A stretch of DNA of 64,000 nt from Escherichia coli (GTDB lineage: Bacteria > Pseudomonadota > Gammaproteobacteria > Enterobacterales > Enterobacteriaceae). The DNA lies in NCBI RefSeq assembly GCF_009931435.1, contig NZ_CP043414.1. One strand, written 5' to 3'. Under the pieces are notes generated by a model. It ran no database searches, had not been told where the DNA came from, and saw only the letters and a list, made by a program, of their open reading frames with translations. A program made the translations under genes and the position numbers. Shown one piece after another: positions 6,304 to 26,459 of this stretch (positions within the stretch are counted from its first letter, which is position 1; each line of letters opens with the position of its first letter).

Positions 6304-6510
6304 TCAGTCAACCACCAGGGAATAATCCTTCATATTATTATCGTGCTTCACCAACGCTGCCTCAATTGCCCTGAATGCTTCCAGAGACACCTTATGTTCT
6401 ATACATGCAATTACAACATCAGGGTAACTCATAGAAATGATGCTATTAAGCATATTTTTTACACGAATCAGATCCACGGAGGGATCATCAGCAGATTGTT
6501 CTTTATTCAT
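6304..6510 (-). CDS. ybcW: Hypothetical prophage protein (YbcW-like)
   Basis: 68 aa ORF, AT-rich, in the K-12 DLP12 ybcW position. Confidence 0.5.
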
Positions 6511-6795
6511 TTTGTCGCTCCATGCGCTTGCTCTTCATCTAGCGGTTAAAATATTACTTCAAATCTTTCTGTATGAAGGTTTGAGCACGTTGGCCTTACA
6601 TACATCTGTCGGTTGTATTTCCCTCCAGAATGCCAGCAGGACCGCACTTTGTTACGCAACCAATACTATTAATTGAAAACATTCCTAATATTTGACATAA
6701 ATCATCAACAAAACACAAAGAGGTCAGACCAGATTGAAGCGATAAAAACGATAATGCAAACTACGCGCCCTCGTATCACATGGAAGGTTTTACCA

Positions 6796-9137: not shown

Positions 9138-9564
9138 AAGCTGTGTGACGAAGTAACCACTCTTAACAGCATAACCAATTTTTTACGTACGTAAACCACT
9201 AAATGATATTTGAGAGAATGCTACCGAGTATTGAAAACACCACTACAAATACATAAGCAAATCTCAACAAATAACCAAAAAATAATTTCCAGTGTTATTT
9301 TTAGCCGGTTTAAATTGAACCTTCAAATTATAGAACACTTATAAATAACAGCCGTTAATATAAATTGGCTAATAGATTTATTTTTATTCAGCCAAGAGCC
9401 ATGAATAGGATTCGATAGAAAAAAGTTCAGATAAAAATAGAGATCTACTTCACAAATCAAACGAGAAACCAAAACTTACATCTTGAAATAATCACATTGA
9501 TTAGATGAATATTTATCGCGCAGTGACATCATTTTTTAATAATAGTTCAAAAAAAGGGCTCACG

Positions 9565-10662
9565 ATGAAAAAATTAACAGTGGCAATTTCTGCTGTAGCT
9601 GCATCAGTACTGATGGCGATGTCTGCTCAGGCAGCTGAAATTTATAATAAAGACAGTAACAAGCTGGATCTGTACGGGAAAGTTAATGCTAAGCACTACT
9701 TCTCCTCTAATGATGCAGATGATGGTGATACTACTTATGCCCGTCTTGGCTTCAAAGGTGAAACCCAAATCAACGATCAACTGACTGGTTTCGGTCAGTG
9801 GGAATATGAATTCAAAGGCAACCGCGCTGAATCTCAAGGTTCCTCCAAAGATAAAACCCGTCTTGCCTTCGCTGGCCTGAAATTCGGTGACTACGGCTCC
9901 ATCGATTACGGCCGTAACTACGGTGTAGCATACGACATCGGTGCGTGGACTGACGTCCTGCCAGAATTCGGTGGTGACACTTGGACTCAAACCGACGTGT
10001 TCATGACTCAACGTGCAACTGGTGTTGCAACCTATCGTAACAACGACTTCTTTGGTCTGGTTGATGGTCTGAACTTTGCTGCTCAGTACCAAGGCAAAAA
10101 CGATCGTAGCGATTTCGATAACTACACTGAAGGTAACGGTGATGGCTTCGGTTTCTCTGCTACCTATGAATACGAAGGATTCGGTATCGGTGCAACTTAT
10201 GCGAAATCTGATCGTACCGACACTCAAGTTAATGCAGGGAAAGTTCTTCCTGAAGTATTTGCTTCCGGTAAAAATGCAGAAGTTTGGGCCGCAGGTCTGA
10301 AATATGACGCTAACAACATTTACCTGGCCACTACCTATTCTGAAACCCAGAATATGACTGTATTTGCTGATCACTTCGTTGCTAATAAAGCCCAAAACTT
10401 CGAAGCTGTTGCACAATATCAGTTCGATTTCGGTCTGCGTCCGTCCGTTGCTTACCTGCAATCTAAAGGTAAGGATCTTGGAGTATGGGGCGATCAGGAC
10501 TTAGTCAAATATGTTGATGTAGGTGCAACCTATTACTTCAACAAAAATATGTCTACTTTCGTTGATTACAAAATCAACCTGCTTGACAAAAATGACTTCA
10601 CTAAAGCACTCGGTGTAAGCACTGATGACATCGTTGCTGTAGGTCTGGTTTACCAGTTCTAA
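9565..10662 (+). CDS. nmpC: Phage-encoded OmpC/OmpF-family general porin (NmpC-like), intact
   Basis: Signal peptide [24 protein letters not shown]-terminal ...VGLVYQF; AGGG SD upstream; no IS interruption. Confidence 0.9.
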
Positions 10663-14762: not shown

Positions 14763-16289
14763 TTAGAAATAAATCTCACCATCAACCATATATTTGAGAG
14801 CACTTATCGCCTGCTGGGCGGATATTACTTTCATTAAAGGATAGTGTTTAAAAACAATGCCATTCATAAAATAGATATCACAGGTTTTATTATCCGTATT
14901 AATTATGATTTTTTCGAATGTTTTATAGGCAAGTGTACGGCATAACTCTCGTCCATTTTTACTGGTTAAGTCAATAGCATAAAAATCACTGAATGAATTT
15001 ACACCTTTACTCTTCAAAGTTTTCAATGATACCGAAGCCCTTCGTAATTCCTTATCTAATAGTCTTATTTTCTCTGCTATAGCGGTAACTTCAGGCGCGA
15101 CAGACAATGCAACGATTAAATTATTAATTTTCATCTGAAGCTCAATAATTTTTAACTCTAAAGTTTCATTAGCATCTTTCTTGTTTTCAACTGGTTGAAT
15201 TTTGCTACAATTAAAAAGCAATTCATTAATGATATTATAATCAACCAAATCTCTTTTTATTGATGGCCTGTCACATCGATGTAATCTTCTCATCGGACAA
15301 ACATAATAGCCATGCAAACTTCCAGATACCGCATGAACAATCATGGTATTACCACAAGCCTCACACTTCATAACTGTTCGAAGTAGATTTATTAGCATAG
15401 GATTCTTGCTACTATTGCTAATACCAAAAGGTGCCAACCGAATTTCCTGTACAGCGTAAAACAAATCATCTGATATGACTCTGGGATAATAGCCAGCGAT
15501 TTCACTTATCCCTTTCCCTCTTGCACGATATGAAGGTACGCAAATACCTATCAGAGCTTTATTCGCTAATAATTTTTCAATTACAGAAGGTCCCCATGCA
15601 CTTTCTTTTCCTGAGAAATTCTTTACAGCATGATCATTTAAATACTTGGCTATTGCATTCAATGAGCGCCTTTCCATCCTGAGTTTAAAAATTAGCTCAA
15701 TAGTTTTCACCCTGTCTGGGTCTGGAACAAAAGCCGTTCTTTTGTCATCTAAGGAGAGCCATCTCGGATAAGACGCCGTCATAATCGTACCTGATTCCAG
15801 TGCATCCTGCCGTTTTTTCTTCCATGATAATTTAACCCGACTTGACTTTATCTCGCTTTCTTCATTTGCCCTTTGTGCTATAAGTATGGCTTTTATTAAT
15901 GAATATGGCTCATTCAAAGAGTCAATATTATAGACTGTATTGTCGCAAAGAGTTATAACATCAATACCGTGATTCAAAATCAATTTCAGACGTTCAATCG
16001 CTTCACCGACTTTTTCTCTTGAAAGTCTGTCCAGACTTTCAACTAACAATGTAGTTCCTGGCAATATATAACCATGCTCTATAGCATCTAAAAATTCCGA
16101 AAAAGCTCCTGATTGTGCATGCTTTCCTTTGAATGCACTTAATCCTAAATCTTCATATGTTATGGTATCAAGATAATAATCACTATTTACCTTTAACCAT
16201 TCAGCAATAAGTCTTCTCTGTCGGTTTAATGAGTCGCCAGACATCTGACCTGGTGATGAAAATCGCATATATGCTATGGCTTTTTTCAT
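14763..16289 (-). CDS. ybcK: Large serine recombinase (resolvase/invertase N-terminal domain; YbcK-like)
   Basis: 508 aa; N-terminal catalytic serine motif (AIAYMRFSSPGQ); large C-terminal domain with Cys cluster. Confidence 0.85.
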   Translation of the reverse strand: MKKAIAYMRFSSPGQMSGDSLNRQRRLIAEWLKVNSDYYLDTITYEDLGLSAFKGKHAQSGAFSEFLDAIEHGYILPGTTLLVESLDRLSREKVGEAIERLKLILNHGIDVITLCDNTVYNIDSLNEPYSLIKAILIAQRANEESEIKSSRVKLSWKKKRQDALESGTIMTASYPRWLSLDDKRTAFVPDPDRVKTIELIFKLRMERRSLNAIAKYLNDHAVKNFSGKESAWGPSVIEKLLANKALIGICVPSYRARGKGISEIAGYYPRVISDDLFYAVQEIRLAPFGISNSSKNPMLINLLRTVMKCEACGNTMIVHAVSGSLHGYYVCPMRRLHRCDRPSIKRDLVDYNIINELLFNCSKIQPVENKKDANETLELKIIELQMKINNLIVALSVAPEVTAIAEKIRLLDKELRRASVSLKTLKSKGVNSFSDFYAIDLTSKNGRELCRTLAYKTFEKIIINTDNKTCDIYFMNGIVFKHYPLMKVISAQQAISALKYMVDGEIYF

Positions 16290-16543: not shown

Positions 16544-16876
16544 TTAATGTGGTGTGCTTCGTGACAATAAATTAATAATCAACACACCGGCACAAATCAA
16601 CATCATGCCTATAATGGCTGGCAGGTCCAGCCGTTGGCCGAAAAATCCCCATGACAGTAAGCTAATCAGGACAATACCGACTCCTGACCAGATAGCATAA
16701 GCAATCCCTGTAGGAATATAAGCCAGCGTCTGAGCTAATAACCAGAATGATGCACAATAACAAATAATTGTACCAACAGATGGCCATAACCGTGTAAAAC
16801 CTTCTGAAAACTTCATTAAGGTTGTACCAATGACCTCTGCAAGTATTGCACCACCAAGATAAATATAAGGGTTCAT
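16544..16876 (-). CDS. emrE: SMR-family multidrug efflux transporter EmrE
   Basis: 110 aa from MNPYIYLGGAILAEVIGTTLMKFSEGF, matches recalled EmrE. Confidence 0.95.
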   Translation of the reverse strand: MNPYIYLGGAILAEVIGTTLMKFSEGFTRLWPSVGTIICYCASFWLLAQTLAYIPTGIAYAIWSGVGIVLISLLSWGFFGQRLDLPAIIGMMLICAGVLIINLLSRSTPH

Positions 16877-16943
16877 AGCATATTCTTTCCTGTTCAAACT
16901 GGAGAGAATTGTACTACAGTTTGAACTCAACTCACCTGTTTCA

Positions 16944-17246
16944 TCATTGTGTTCCCATTGATGTTCTTTTATATACCCTCAATACCCGTTTCATCGCGGC
17001 ACTCTGGCGACACTCCTTAAAAATCAGATTCGTGCTCACCTTTCCTTCCCATTCTTCTCTGGTAGCGAACCGGTAATACACCGTTCGCCAGACCTTACCA
17101 TCAACGACCAGGATTCCTGCCCGCGCCATTTTAGCCGCAGCCTGATTTATGCTGGTTACGGTTGCGCCTGTTACCGCGGCAACGTCCTGTGCACAGAAGC
17201 TCTTATGCGTCCCCAGGTAATGAATAATTGCCTCTTTGCCCGTCAT
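16944..17246 (-). CDS. ren: Ren protein
   Basis: 100 aa, MTGKEAIIHYLGTH... matches lambda Ren. Confidence 0.85.
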   Translation of the reverse strand: MTGKEAIIHYLGTHKSFCAQDVAAVTGATVTSINQAAAKMARAGILVVDGKVWRTVYYRFATREEWEGKVSTNLIFKECRQSAAMKRVLRVYKRTSMGTQ

Positions 17247-19565: not shown

Positions 19566-19796
19566 TTAAGCTGCGTTCTTTTCGGTGTGTGGAAACAACT
19601 TCGGAAGATCCGGGCGAATCTGGTATGCCTTCACAACTCCACCAGTAGCCGTAACAATGCTGCCGACATGTTCAGGGGATACCTTTGCTTTGTTGTGAAG
19701 CCACTTATAGACGGCCTGCTGTGAAACTTCGCAGGCATCGCCTAGTTTCTTTTGTGAACCAACGATATTGATCGCTGTTTTGATTGCTGGGTTCAT
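19566..19796 (-). CDS. cro: Cro-like HTH regulator (YdaS/Cro family)
   Basis: 76 aa, divergent from the cI gene across the operator region. Confidence 0.7.
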   Translation of the reverse strand: MNPAIKTAINIVGSQKKLGDACEVSQQAVYKWLHNKAKVSPEHVGSIVTATGGVVKAYQIRPDLPKLFPHTEKNAA

Positions 19797-19900
19797 AACA
19801 ACCTCCGTGGTTAATCCGAATCAAGATTAAAACTATGGTTGTTTTTAGTCAACAACCATTTTCGTTTGATGAAATAAAACCTTGGTTGTACATTTGATCT
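19797..19900. promoter_or_regulatory. Immunity-region divergent promoter/operator (OR-like); 9-bp-arm palindrome atggttgtt-N7-aacaaccat at 19835-19859
   Basis: Palindrome and repeated ACAACC/GGTTGT half-sites between divergent cro-like and cI genes. Confidence 0.6.
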
Positions 19901-20590
19901 ATGAAAACAACACTCTCAGAAAGACTTAAAGAAGCCAGATTAGCGCGAGGCCTTACACAAAAGGCGCTTGGGGATTTGGTCGGGGTTAGCCAGGCTGCTA
20001 TTCAGAAAATCGAAACAGGGAAAGCTAACCAAACAACTAAAATCGTGGAGATCGCGAACGCTTTGGGTGTACGCGCAGAATGGTTATCTTCTGGCGTTGG
20101 AAATATGTCAGACAGTACAGTGCAACCAATACAATCAACTGTCAGCCATTCCAAATACTTCAAAATTGACGTTCTTGATATAGAAGTCAGTGCCGGGCCA
20201 GGTGTAATCAACCGTGAGTTTGTAGAAGTTCTACGCTCGGTTGAGTACTCGTTTGACGATGCTCGTCACATGTTCGATGGCAGGAAGGCGGAAAATATCC
20301 GCATCATTAACGTGCGAGGTGACAGCATGTCAGGGACGATCGAACCAGGTGACCTGCTGTTCGTTGATATCACTGTTAAATCTTTCGACGGTGATGGCAT
20401 CTATGCGTTTCTGTACGACGACACTGCCCATGTAAAACGTCTTCAAATGATGAAGGATAAGCTGCTGGTTATCTCTGATAACAAGAGCTACTCGCCGTGG
20501 GACCCGATCGAGAAAGACGAGATGAACCGGGTGTTCATATTCGGTAAGGTCATTGGAAGCATGCCGCAGACGTACAGGAAGCATGGTTAA
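19901..20590 (+). CDS. cI: CI-type prophage repressor (XRE HTH plus S24 LexA-like autopeptidase domain)
   Basis: 229 aa; N-terminal HTH; C-terminal GDSMSGTIEPGDLLFVD peptidase motif. Confidence 0.85.
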   Translation: MKTTLSERLKEARLARGLTQKALGDLVGVSQAAIQKIETGKANQTTKIVEIANALGVRAEWLSSGVGNMSDSTVQPIQSTVSHSKYFKIDVLDIEVSAGPGVINREFVEVLRSVEYSFDDARHMFDGRKAENIRIINVRGDSMSGTIEPGDLLFVDITVKSFDGDGIYAFLYDDTAHVKRLQMMKDKLLVISDNKSYSPWDPIEKDEMNRVFIFGKVIGSMPQTYRKHG

Positions 20591-20819
20591 TTTATCTACG
20601 ACTTAAGGGAGCGAAGGTTAAGGTTTATACCACTCGGATTAGATATTGCACTAAATTCTCTATAAGAACGCCAAATCTGTTTGCATATTTCAGTAAATAT
20701 TCTCGTTGTTAGCTGAGATTTGTTGCTACTGTCAGCAAAATGTCTCCCTATCTCGTAGCGGTTTTTATTTCGAATCATTATGTTAAGATGTTTCTGATTA
20801 TAATGAATGGAAACATAAA

Positions 20820-21200
20820 ATGAGAAAAATCCTAATCGCTGCCATGATGGCATCTGTATTGGCTGGGTGTGCTTCTTCAGGCAACCAGCAACTCAAAAAT
20901 GAAACTGAAATTAGTGTCCAGTCTAAACTTCAGGAAGGTAAAACAACCAAGAATGAGGTTAAATCTTACTTTGGTTCTCCTGATGCTGTTTCATATACTG
21001 ACAGTGGAAAGGAGATCTGGAAGTACGCCTTTGCAAAAGTAAAAGTTAATGGCACCACTTTTATTCCATTCTATGGATTATTCCATAACGGAACGAACGG
21101 TACGAAAAAAGAACTTACTATTCTTTTTAACGATGACACGATTAAGAAATACACAATGTCAGAAACCCAAATAAACTCGAAATCAGGTTGGGCTGACTGA
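20820..21200 (+). CDS. Lipoprotein of unknown function encoded downstream of cI (rexAB position)
   Basis: 126 aa; signal peptide with lipobox LAGC; followed by a terminator. Confidence 0.75.
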   Translation: MRKILIAAMMASVLAGCASSGNQQLKNETEISVQSKLQEGKTTKNEVKSYFGSPDAVSYTDSGKEIWKYAFAKVKVNGTTFIPFYGLFHNGTNGTKKELTILFNDDTIKKYTMSETQINSKSGWAD

Positions 21201-21207
21201 TAATCAT

Positions 21208-21236
21208 ACCCGGCAACCGCGCCGGGTTTTCTTTTC
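21208..21236 (+). terminator. Rho-independent terminator after the cI-lipoprotein unit
   Basis: acccggc / gccgggt stem followed by tttcttttcc. Confidence 0.7.
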
Positions 21237-21350
21237 CTCCCCCTCATAACTCATACCGTCCAAAAAACCACCACACCTCACTTCAGTTATCGCTATGCGA
21301 TGCAAGTCACAAAATAAATCCATCCTAAATACAACCAGTTATATTTAAAA

Positions 21351-21404
21351 CAACCGATAAAACAACTTTTGTTGTTGACGATAAAACAACTATAGTTTTA
21401 AATA
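21351..21404 (+). promoter_or_regulatory. Candidate early-left promoter/operator (pL/OL-like): palindrome aacaac-tttt-gttgtt overlapping a TTGACG -35 element
   Basis: Palindrome 21361-21376; TTGACG at 21375-21380; AT-rich -10 candidates about 17 bp downstream; shares the ACAAC half-site with the OR region. Confidence 0.45.
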
Positions 21405-21596
21405 AATTCATCGCAACGACACAACGATACGGTAACCACCTGTTTCACCGTTGCGATGACCGCTTAGATCCGCAGTTTGAATTTCAGCAGGCTTCGGGGA
21501 GTGCGAGGGGTGAAACGGACGCGTGAACGTCGGTGTGACCAGCTGAAATCAACACAACACTTTATACCTCAGTCGCTTCAACGAGGCGGCTTAGTT

Positions 21597-21887
21597 ATGA
21601 CAACCGGCGGCCATCCACCGCCTGAATACGCGCAGAAGTCTCTATATGTTCAGCAGCCCAGCTTACGGGCAGGAGTTTTTATGGTTCATCAACATTACGG
21701 AACGCAGACCGTTAATCGAGGTGCGGTCATGCCAGGAATGCTGGTCAAACACAAAGATGGTACCTGGACTGCATCAGCTAATTTACGCGGACGGCTTTAT
21801 CTGCATCGCGGCATCGAGCGCACTTATACCCGTGATTTGCTCGTGGAAGTTTTTCTCGACGGACGCGGTAACGGCCTGAATCGCTAA
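21597..21887 (+). CDS. Hypothetical early-left protein (96 aa from ATG with GAGG SD; possible 136-aa form from TTG at 21477)
   Basis: ORF between the pL-like region and gam; the longer form has an arginine-rich N-terminus. Confidence 0.4.
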
Positions 21888-25005: not shown

Positions 25006-25348
25006 GGCCTGTCAGTTTCTTAAGATATCCAGACCAACCGCCACCAACTGGATACGAACAGGCCGCCTACAGGCAACACGTAAAGATCCAACCAAGCCAA
25101 AATCTCCTTACCTCACAACACGGCAAGCCTGCATTGCGGCGCTTCAGTCTCCGCTGCATACTGTCCAGGTGAGCGCGGGTGATGGCATAACAGAGGAAAG
25201 AAAATGTCACTCTTCCGCAGAAATGAAATATGGTATGCCTCGTATTCGCTCCCGGGCGGGAAACGAATTAAGGAATCTCTTGGCACAAAGGACAAGCGGC
25301 AAGCTCAGGAGTTGCACGACAAGCGAAAAGCAGAACTCTGGCGAGTAG
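24977..25348 (+). CDS. xis: Putative excisionase; 3' end uncertain, ORF overlaps the int start
   Basis: ORF directly upstream of int with HTH-like N-terminus ([26 protein letters not shown]); possibly a pseudogene as in K-12 xisD. Confidence 0.45.
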
Positions 25349-26367
25349 AAAAGCTAGGGGATTTACCTGATGTCACTTTTGAAGAGGCCTGCCTAAGATG
25401 GCTTGAGGAAAAAGCTGATAAAAAATCTCTCGATTCAGATAAAAGCCGGATTGAGTTCTGGCTTGAACATTTTGAGGGTATAAGGCTTAAAGATATCTCG
25501 GAGGCAAAGATTTACTCTGCTGTAAGCAGAATGCATAACAGAAAGACGAAAGAAATATGGAAACAGAAAGTTCAGGCCGCCATCAGGAAAGGTAAAGAAC
25601 TGCCTGTTTATGAACCAAAGCCAGTATCAACTCAGACAAAGGCAAAGCATCTTGCCATGATAAAGGCCATTCTCCGTGCTGCAGAACGCGACTGGAAGTG
25701 GCTGGAAAAAGCGCCTGTCATCAAGATACCAGCGGTCAGAAACAAGCGAGTCAGATGGCTGGAAAAGGAGGAAGCAAAACGCCTTATTGATGAGTGCCCC
25801 GAACCACTGAAATCTGTCGTCAAGTTTGCGCTGGCAACTGGTCTGAGAAAGTCGAACATCATAAATCTGGAATGGCAACAAATCGACATGCAGCGACGAG
25901 TTGCCTGGGTGAATCCAGAAGAGAGCAAATCAAACCGCGCCATTGGTGTGGCGCTGAACGATACCGCCTGTAAAGTGTTGCGTGATCAAATAGGCAAGCA
26001 TCACAAATGGGTGTTTGTACATACCAAGGCGGCTAAGCGAGCAGATGGAACATCAACGCCTGCGGTCAGGAAGATGCGCATCGACAGCAAGACATCATGG
26101 CTATCAGCTTGTCGTCGTGCAGGAATTGAAGATTTCCGTTTCCATGACCTCAGACACACCTGGGCAAGCTGGCTGATTCAGTCAGGCGTCCCATTATCAG
26201 TGCTTCAGGAAATGGGCGGATGGGAGTCCATAGAAATGGTTCGTAGGTATGCTCACCTTGCGCCTAATCATTTGACAGAGCATGCGAGGAAAATAGACGA
26301 CATTTTTGGTGATAATGTCCCAAATATGTCCCACTCTGAAATTATGGAGGATATAAAGAAGGCGTAA
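25204..26367 (+). CDS. intD: Tyrosine integrase (DLP12 IntD-type)
   Basis: 387 aa; C-terminal R...HxxR...Y catalytic region; adjacent to tRNA-Arg. Confidence 0.95.
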
Positions 26368-26382
26368 CTGATTGAATTGTAA

Positions 26383-26459
26383 TGGCGCGCCCTGCAGGAT
26401 TCGAACCTGCGGCCCACGACTTAGAAGGTCGTTGCTCTATCCAACTGAGCTAAGGGCGC
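26383..26459 (-). tRNA. argU: tRNA-Arg (anticodon UCU), argU; phage attachment site at its 3' end
   Basis: 77-nt reverse complement gives acceptor stem GCGCCCU/AGGGCGC, anticodon loop CUUCUAA, T-arm GGTTCGAATCC, 3' CCA. Confidence 0.95.

Follow-up and report, generated by a model that had tools for sequence, protein, structure and literature searches.

The lipoprotein gene and its locus

The window analysed here, a stretch of 64,000 nucleotides from the Escherichia coli contig NZ_CP043414.1 (assembly GCF_009931435.1), contains a prophage whose immunity region carries a gene for a small lipoprotein of 126 residues, and it is this gene, its relatives and the possible role of its product that concern us. 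The immunity region runs in the order O/P (-), a YdaT-like gene in the cII position (-), cro (19566-19796, -), cI (+), the lipoprotein gene (+) and an intrinsic terminator, beyond which lie operator-like repeats, a PL-like promoter and then kil, gam, bet, exo and int (all +; Table 1). A palindrome in the gap between cro and cI (19835-19859) has the same half-sites as the OL/PL-like region. The lipoprotein gene sits between cI and OL/PL, that is, in the rexAB position of a DLP12-like prophage, and on the cI strand, as an original prediction made from the sequence alone had placed it. The same prediction had the gene directly downstream of cI; it is indeed the next gene on that strand, but the two are separated by an AT-rich spacer of 229 bp rather than being immediately adjacent. 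The whole locus is 99.7% identical to that of the induced phage PhiR26_1, in which the open reading frame (ORF) is annotated as a 'hypothetical protein, putative lipoprotein'.

Table 1. Coordinates of the lipoprotein gene and of the features around it, numbered from the first nucleotide of the window.
Feature	Coordinates	Strand	Basis or remark
cI repressor gene, helix-turn-helix (HTH) and S24 peptidase domains	19901-20590	+	phrog_4, E 8.7e-73; annotated as cI in PhiR26_1
AT-rich spacer, first part of the inserted cassette	20591-20780	+	no convincing terminator
TGTTAAGAT, predicted extended -10 element (TGnTAxxAT), ~39 nt 5' of the start codon	20781-20789	+	predicted from conservation
GGAAA, likely Shine-Dalgarno element	20809-20813	+	GGA invariant in an upstream alignment of 18 loci
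Lipoprotein gene, 126 aa	20820-21200	+	ORF list, PHROG, Pfam, structural model, dN/dS
Signal peptide, codons 1-16	20820-20867	+	
Codon of lipidated Cys17	20868-20870	+	
Intrinsic terminator, stem 21208-21227 and U-run	21208-21236	+	kept in PhiR34_1
OL/PL-like region, AACAAC/GTTGTT repeats and TTGACG-17-TTAAAT	21346-21403	+	predicted; read from the sequence

The lipoprotein ORF is the sole sizeable one on the + strand of the interval, and it is a genuine gene. Between close relatives, the mature protein has a ratio of nonsynonymous to synonymous substitution (dN/dS) of 0.04-0.06 in pairwise comparisons at dS ~1.7-2, where synonymous sites are saturated, and it is under strong purifying selection; the signal peptide, unlike the mature part, varies freely. 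There are 227 close homologues with identities of 71-99%, in Escherichia, Citrobacter, Enterobacter, Cronobacter, Leclercia, Kluyvera and Phytobacter, and an alignment of 17 close relatives shows 57 of the 126 positions to be invariant across genera. A profile built from these 17 gathers a wider family of 1752 clusters at 50% identity, of which 458 have E <1e-10, and the strong purifying selection together with the more than 1700 clusters excludes a spurious ORF. The protein matches PHROG 3135, a family of 'unknown function', at E 7.7e-48, with residues 1-124 aligned to profile positions 1-114 of 114. On the opposite strand, an 85-aa ORF (20596-20853, -) lies across the spacer and the beginning of the lipoprotein gene; it found no match in PHROGs, is not annotated by RefSeq, lies in the lineage-specific AT-rich spacer and was treated as spurious, probably an artefact of AT-rich sequence.

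The N-terminus of the protein, MRKILIAAMMASVLAGC followed by ASS, combines a basic n-region with a hydrophobic core and the lipobox L-A-G-C, with Cys17 as the residue to be lipidated and Ala, not Asp, at +2, just as the original prediction had read it. Under the established +2 rule, Ala at this position is expected to lead to outer-membrane sorting, and the 126-residue product is, on the strength of its lipobox and Ala at +2, predicted to be probably destined for the outer membrane.

Comparison with other phages identifies the gene as an accessory moron inserted between cI and the terminator of the immunity region. Phages PhiR34_1 and Turner have cI (~96% identity) and the terminator in common with the window and, between an identical end of cI and that terminator, lack the cassette: where the window has ~615 bp, they have ~115 bp of unrelated sequence. 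The GC content of the cassette is 0.36-0.38 as against 0.47-0.53 in its flanks, and the part of the spacer upstream of the predicted extended -10 element matches only PhiR26_1 among phage records and is absent from PhiR34_1. Among 5426 complete E. coli genomes, the cI allele is found at a coverage of at least 80% in 1519 and the lipoprotein cassette in 68; a cI at least 99% identical to the window copy occurs in 55 genomes. Two of the E. coli carrier loci were inspected, and both are prophage immunity regions with the same context. Of the features by which morons are known, presence or absence between relatives and a deviant base composition are thus both found here (PhiR34_1 and Turner, the GC content, and the two insertion hot spots described below). 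As for a promoter and terminator of its own, the terminator is shared with the backbone and the promoter is deduced from a conserved motif.

The terminator has a 7-bp stem with six GC pairs, followed by UUUUCUUUU, and begins 7 nt 3' of the lipoprotein stop codon; it folds at -14.1 kcal/mol (z-score -3.2 against shuffled sequences), which bears out the earlier description of a gene closed by a strong terminator. Because it is also present in relatives without the lipoprotein gene, however, the terminator is better assigned to the phage backbone, where it is predicted to close the cI/lipoprotein transcription unit. Farther downstream, a 136-aa ORF with a TTG start (21477-21887, +) matches Kil (phrog_294) over residues 60-135 only, and no ORF for an N-type antiterminator was seen between PL and kil in the window.

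Two preferred insertion sites and the signals upstream

The interval between the repressor gene and N is a recognised site for morons and defence genes (PMC7067206), and the original prediction took the position of the lipoprotein gene to be a protective slot of the rexAB type. A majority of its relatives share the position after a repressor gene. A scan of IMG/VR gave 142 loci, of which the best 80 (proteins 78-100% identical) were analysed: the gene is downstream of a cI-like gene in 52 of the 80, no more than 2 kb upstream of an ORF of 700-1260 aa in 22, and in a position that could not be assigned in six. The long ORF is a tape-measure gene by PHROGs in two of the 22 loci, one of which also has a major tail gene upstream. 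In genomes and phages, the gene lies 3' of a cI-type repressor in 15 of the 17 loci examined (proteins at least 71% identical), and in Citrobacter and Enterobacter it is 3' of such a repressor and on the same strand in all ten; the repressor is of the S24 type in eight of these and of the HTH/Phage_CI_repr type in one (L004). In Klebsiella phage RAH1 and in one Yersinia and one Salinicola prophage, more distant members (48-63% identity) are found just upstream of the tape-measure gene, and these tail-cluster homologues match PHROG 3135 too. Members in Gilliamella, Serratia and one metagenome contig have non-phage chromosomal neighbourhoods.

The gene is therefore best described as a mobile cassette with two preferred sites, the cI-PL slot and the tail-gene cluster. 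The notion of a strictly rexAB-slot gene had to be rejected, as the gene belongs to the tail cluster in 22 of the 80, and the argument from the slot is weakened accordingly, since near-identical genes are also found in the tail-gene cluster of other phages.

Other cargo is sometimes interposed between the repressor and the lipoprotein gene in the Citrobacter and Enterobacter loci. The three Cronobacter loci have the order cI, a gene for an NYN-domain protein, the lipoprotein gene and N, and Salmonella phage S107 has cI, two genes without known function, the lipoprotein gene and N. The uncharacterised products encoded in this interval are a 287-aa NYN-domain protein in Cronobacter (L024-L026, 4039-4902), a 302-aa protein without a Pfam match in Citrobacter (L005-L008, 5003-5911) and proteins of 255 and 62 aa in S107 (L018, 2989-3911), and they are candidate defence proteins. 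Directly 3' of the lipoprotein gene, the Citrobacter, Enterobacter, Cronobacter and Salmonella loci repeatedly have an oppositely oriented ORF of 63-75 aa (L004-L013, ~6410-6722, -; L018, 4423-4650, -; L024, 5420-5611, -); it is absent from the window.

How the gene might be expressed can be approached through the same comparison. A clear intrinsic terminator (z ~-3.5) closes the upstream gene at the loci from Citrobacter, Enterobacter, Cronobacter, Salmonella and Yersinia, and ~15-20 bp past it there is a conserved block with TGTTAAGAT, TGTTAGGAT or TGATATGAT, followed ~30 nt farther on by GGA and then ATG. This non-coding block has been kept across five genera despite the saturation of synonymous sites, and 55 of the 80 viral loci carry the motif TGnTAxxAT at -50 to -25. 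In 16 viral loci without it, the lipoprotein gene lies 47-48 bp past the cI stop codon; in the only spacer of this kind that was read (L056) there is only a Shine-Dalgarno-like AAGGAAAT and no terminator. In this class of relatives the lipoprotein gene is apparently operonic with cI, and this close spacing without a terminator would imply expression in the lysogen. In the window itself, the spacer contains no convincing + strand terminator (folding z 0.23 and -1.5 against shuffles), and because cI and the lipoprotein gene are not separated by one, both routes are possible: the gene could be reached by read-through from the cI promoters, from a predicted extended -10 promoter of its own, or from both. 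The arrangements point, indirectly, to expression of the lipoprotein in the lysogen.

The remainder of the prophage can be outlined briefly. The integrase gene (25204-26367, +) adjoins a gene for tRNA-Arg(TCT) (26383-26459, -), with host DNA beyond, a junction which we take to be the argU attachment site of the cryptic K-12 prophage DLP12; with its ren, EmrE-like, serine recombinase and porin genes, the element is presumably a complete-looking relative of DLP12, and it looks like an intact one. Beyond ren (16944-17246) are a gene for a small multidrug resistance (SMR) transporter similar to EmrE and QacE (16544-16930, -) and one for a 507-aa serine recombinase (14763-16289, -). At this place PhiR26_1 carries the defence gene PD-lambda-1, so that the site appears to be a slot for exchangeable cargo. 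In the late region there is a porin-like gene (9505-10662, +; phrog_410, OmpD in PhiR26_1), and Bor, Lom and an omptin are further products of PhiR26_1; with its porin, Bor, Lom and omptin genes, a prophage of this kind would remodel the outer membrane in several ways.

A BamE-like domain with other surfaces

The original prediction had not recognised the protein as belonging to a characterised family. In addition to its match to PHROG 3135, however, sequence profiles and the structural model identify it as what we would call a remote paralogue of the BamE/SmpA-OmlA-domain proteins, and not BamE itself. The match of the window protein to the Pfam BamE domain (PF04355) is weak (i-E 4e-4), and of 54 diverse family members 28 match at E<=1e-3 and 46 at E<=0.1. 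An AlphaFold2 model built on the family alignment, with a mean predicted local distance difference test score (pLDDT) of 86.5, and of more than 95 for residues 21-70, has a confident fold from about residue 20, in which the mature part of ~109 aa adopts a BamE-like fold. With this model, the best Foldseek matches among PDB entries are E. coli BamE chains in complexes of the machinery for beta-barrel assembly (BAM), with a probability of 1.0, template modelling (TM) scores of 0.63-0.70 normalised to BamE and ~20% identity; hhalign against E. coli BamE gives a probability of 89.6% and E 1.9e-6. The nearest neighbours in the AlphaFold database are 'SmpA/OmlA-domain lipoproteins' of ~130 aa from many Proteobacteria, with generic annotations only among the descriptions listed, and the viral structures matched belong to SmpA/OmlA lipoproteins of two Pseudomonas phages, PP9W2 and B3. 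The relationship is a distant one: a single-sequence search of solved structures returned only the signal peptide of ApoE, a profile search of the same structures reached BamE at E ~0.1, and the NCBIfam BamE model found no match at E<=0.1; it took comparisons of folds and of profiles with profiles to bring the kinship out.

What the phage lipoprotein shares with BamE is its predicted nature as an outer-membrane lipoprotein, a similar size, an alpha-alpha-beta-beta-beta domain and the core motifs G-x-T-x-x-x-V...G-x-P, W-x-Y and L-T-L-x-F, but it differs in several key features. The first is genomic, in that the phage gene is prophage-borne and rare whereas bamE is a core, single-copy housekeeping gene. 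The second is the tether, which is ~3 residues long after the lipidated Cys in the phage protein, whereas BamE has an extension of 11-14 residues carrying Tyr28, a residue needed for contact with BamA and for outer-membrane integrity (bioRxiv 10.1101/2024.10.31.621230). An 11-residue gap in the hhalign alignment falls exactly over this extension and, because it is absent, the folded domain of the phage protein begins ~3 residues after Cys17. The third concerns the contact surface: the residues through which BamE contacts BamA and BamD, Y37, L63, M64, D66, F68 and R78 (bioRxiv 10.1101/2024.10.31.621230), align with Q23, D55, A56, S58, S62 and A72, respectively, although D66 may be placed one or two positions off and there is a conserved Asp, D61, nearby. 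Finally, the phage protein has an inserted loop of ~14 residues (FIPFYGLFHNG...), which BamE lacks, and a conserved C-terminal GWAD. The loop region, FIPFYGLFHNGTNGTKK (residues 81-97), is the most conserved motif of the close family, with a low pLDDT of ~56-76; being invariant in sequence and not fixed in the model, it looks like a partner-binding element.

RefSeq names these proteins inconsistently: of alleles one or two residues apart, some go under 'hypothetical protein' and others under 'outer membrane protein assembly factor BamE'. As the features that define BamE fail in the phage protein, the BamE label is unsupported and appears to be a misleading over-annotation. That the window gene might after all be a copy of housekeeping bamE, as some RefSeq and JGI records name it, or else a mis-called ORF, is hardly credible given that the cassette is confined to 68 of the 5426 complete E. 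coli genomes, that both inspected loci are in prophages, that the BamE features are missing, and that the ORF is under purifying selection in a family of more than 1700 clusters. Confident homology to a housekeeping lipoprotein had been named in the original prediction as a result that would speak against it, and the remote kinship to BamE is not of that kind: the extension and most of the contacts of BamE are absent, and the E. coli contexts inspected are prophages only.

A different question is whether the phage protein could act as a BamE mimic, docking on BAM or its clients in place of or beside BamE and so altering the assembly of outer-membrane proteins in the lysogen. Its effects could be fewer receptor porins, aid for the barrel proteins of the prophage (porin, Lom, omptin) or an altered conformation of BamA. 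The structural matches to BamE chains in BAM complexes, the hhalign result and the 28 of 54 family members that match the Pfam domain are what one would expect of such a mimic, outer-membrane barrel proteins are among the products of both PhiR26_1 and the window prophage, and the loss of BamE lowers the assembly of LamB and OmpF (bioRxiv 10.1101/2024.10.31.621230). Nevertheless, we think this quite unlikely, for the Tyr28-bearing 11-residue extension is absent, most residues that contact BamA and BamD are replaced, sequence identity to BamE is only ~20-27%, no NCBIfam match was obtained, and the BamE fold is a small and common periplasmic module that says little about the partner. More improbable still is the specific version in which the phage BamE paralogue engages BAM, or barrel proteins whether nascent or mature, on their periplasmic side through its invariant loop and re-programmes the lysogen surface; BamA or a porin would then be locked in a form unusable by incoming phages (for example BamA-dependent phages of the Stx type) or by contact-dependent toxins.

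Possible roles in the lysogen

The explanation that we prefer, with a probability of roughly 0.45, is that the lipoprotein serves as a superinfection exclusion factor comparable to Cor, Llp and Lpp010 but built on an unrelated fold, a reading argued from the position of the gene and from the analogy with known lipoproteins. The protein would be made in the lysogen by one or both of the routes described above and would reach the inner leaflet of the outer membrane through Lol sorting. With its short tether keeping it near the membrane, it might then bind the periplasmic face of a conserved envelope or outer-membrane component through its conserved loop, and such binding would block the adsorption or DNA entry of superinfecting phages.

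The analogy with Cor and Llp is one of setting. Cor (of phi80, N15, HK022 and mEp167) and Llp of T5 are likewise small outer-membrane lipoproteins of phages, made in lysogens or early in infection; their genes are beside receptor-binding genes, their target is FhuA, and they act by blocking the receptor from the periplasmic side. No relationship in sequence or fold to the phage lipoprotein emerged (for Llp, within the best 50 PDB matches), and the likeness is functional only. The mEpimmI coliphages provide another parallel, as their lipoproteins Lpp021 and Lpp010 come from the structural-gene cluster and exclude phages when expressed from a plasmid, Lpp021 acting against mEp021 and mEp515, which use OmpA, and Lpp010 against LamB-dependent phages including lambda (PMC11893012). 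The location of Lpp021 and Lpp010 resembles that of the tail-cluster copies of the PHROG 3135 family, but Lpp010 (82 aa, phrog_12984) is unrelated to the PHROG 3135 lipoprotein.

As for the slot itself, lambda rexAB, HK022 nun and BTP1 bstA occupy the same cI-N interval, where in some of its relatives the lipoprotein gene, too, is seemingly operonic with cI. They differ in being cytoplasmic or inner-membrane systems of abortive infection or transcription termination, whereas the phage lipoprotein is predicted to be exported, is a single protein and has no homology to them. Closer in kind are lambda Bor and HK97 gp15, which are also small envelope proteins from autonomous moron cassettes present or absent between related phages, although of different family and location; Bor has its role in serum resistance, and gp15, located in the inner membrane, blocks DNA entry.

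Several results weigh against an exclusion factor. A scan of the spacer for consensus sigma-70 promoters listed none on the + strand, so that the proposal of a promoter rests on comparative conservation, and what is conserved fits an extended -10 promoter (TGnTAxxAT) as a predicted motif only. No kinship to Cor or Llp, the analogues named in the original prediction, materialised: the Cor family (PHROG 1119) was hit at E 0.064 through the signal peptide only, without homology, and neither an Llp-like chain nor one from an FhuA complex was among the best 50 Foldseek matches in the PDB. Lpp010 gave an hhalign probability of 44% on the signal peptide only, and no defence-protein family in PADLOC-DB 2.0 matched at E<=1. 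As a rule, the genes of known exclusion lipoproteins are linked to those for receptor binding in the same phage, and the PHROG 3135 gene travels with immunity regions that are mosaic relative to the tails. No functional study of the PHROG 3135 family was found in the literature. Finally, the non-phage neighbourhoods of some family members suggest a function in the envelope of the cell that may have nothing to do with phages.

This last point leads to a lysogenic-conversion factor, a lipoprotein that would improve the fitness of the lysogen under stress or in the face of bile, serum, antimicrobial peptides or the demands of colonisation, in the manner of Bor or OsmE-type lipoproteins. Such a role accords with the ordinary chromosomal neighbourhoods of wider family members, with the SmpA/OmlA- or BamE-domain neighbours in the AlphaFold database from many Proteobacteria, and with the company of other envelope morons in the prophage (Bor, Lom, porin, omptin); in addition, many E. 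coli carriers among the matches listed are animal isolates or enterotoxigenic E. coli (ETEC), but this pattern of host sources may reflect clonal sampling only. We regard it as unlikely, as the gene is strongly tied to the repressor slot and to the tail cluster of temperate phages, a pattern that suits known anti-phage morons at least equally. It should be kept in mind that exclusion, BAM mimicry and a fitness function are not fully exclusive of each other.

The family was thus already catalogued, as PHROG 3135 and through automatic annotation as SmpA/OmlA or BamE, with its function uncharacterised; what the analysis adds is a prophage moron lipoprotein, a candidate exclusion factor, with a fold unlike that of Cor or Llp. 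If the exclusion reading is correct, a widespread family, occurring in prophages of Escherichia, Salmonella, Citrobacter, Enterobacter, Cronobacter, Klebsiella and Yersinia, would join the short list of lipoprotein-based exclusion factors. The near-invariant mature sequence suggests a conserved target in the envelope, possibly a general point of vulnerability in phage entry, which would matter for the host range of therapeutic phages. If BAM were the point of action, the lipoprotein would offer a rare example of outer-membrane biogenesis tuned by a virus, and the exclusion that resulted could be broad and independent of the receptor.

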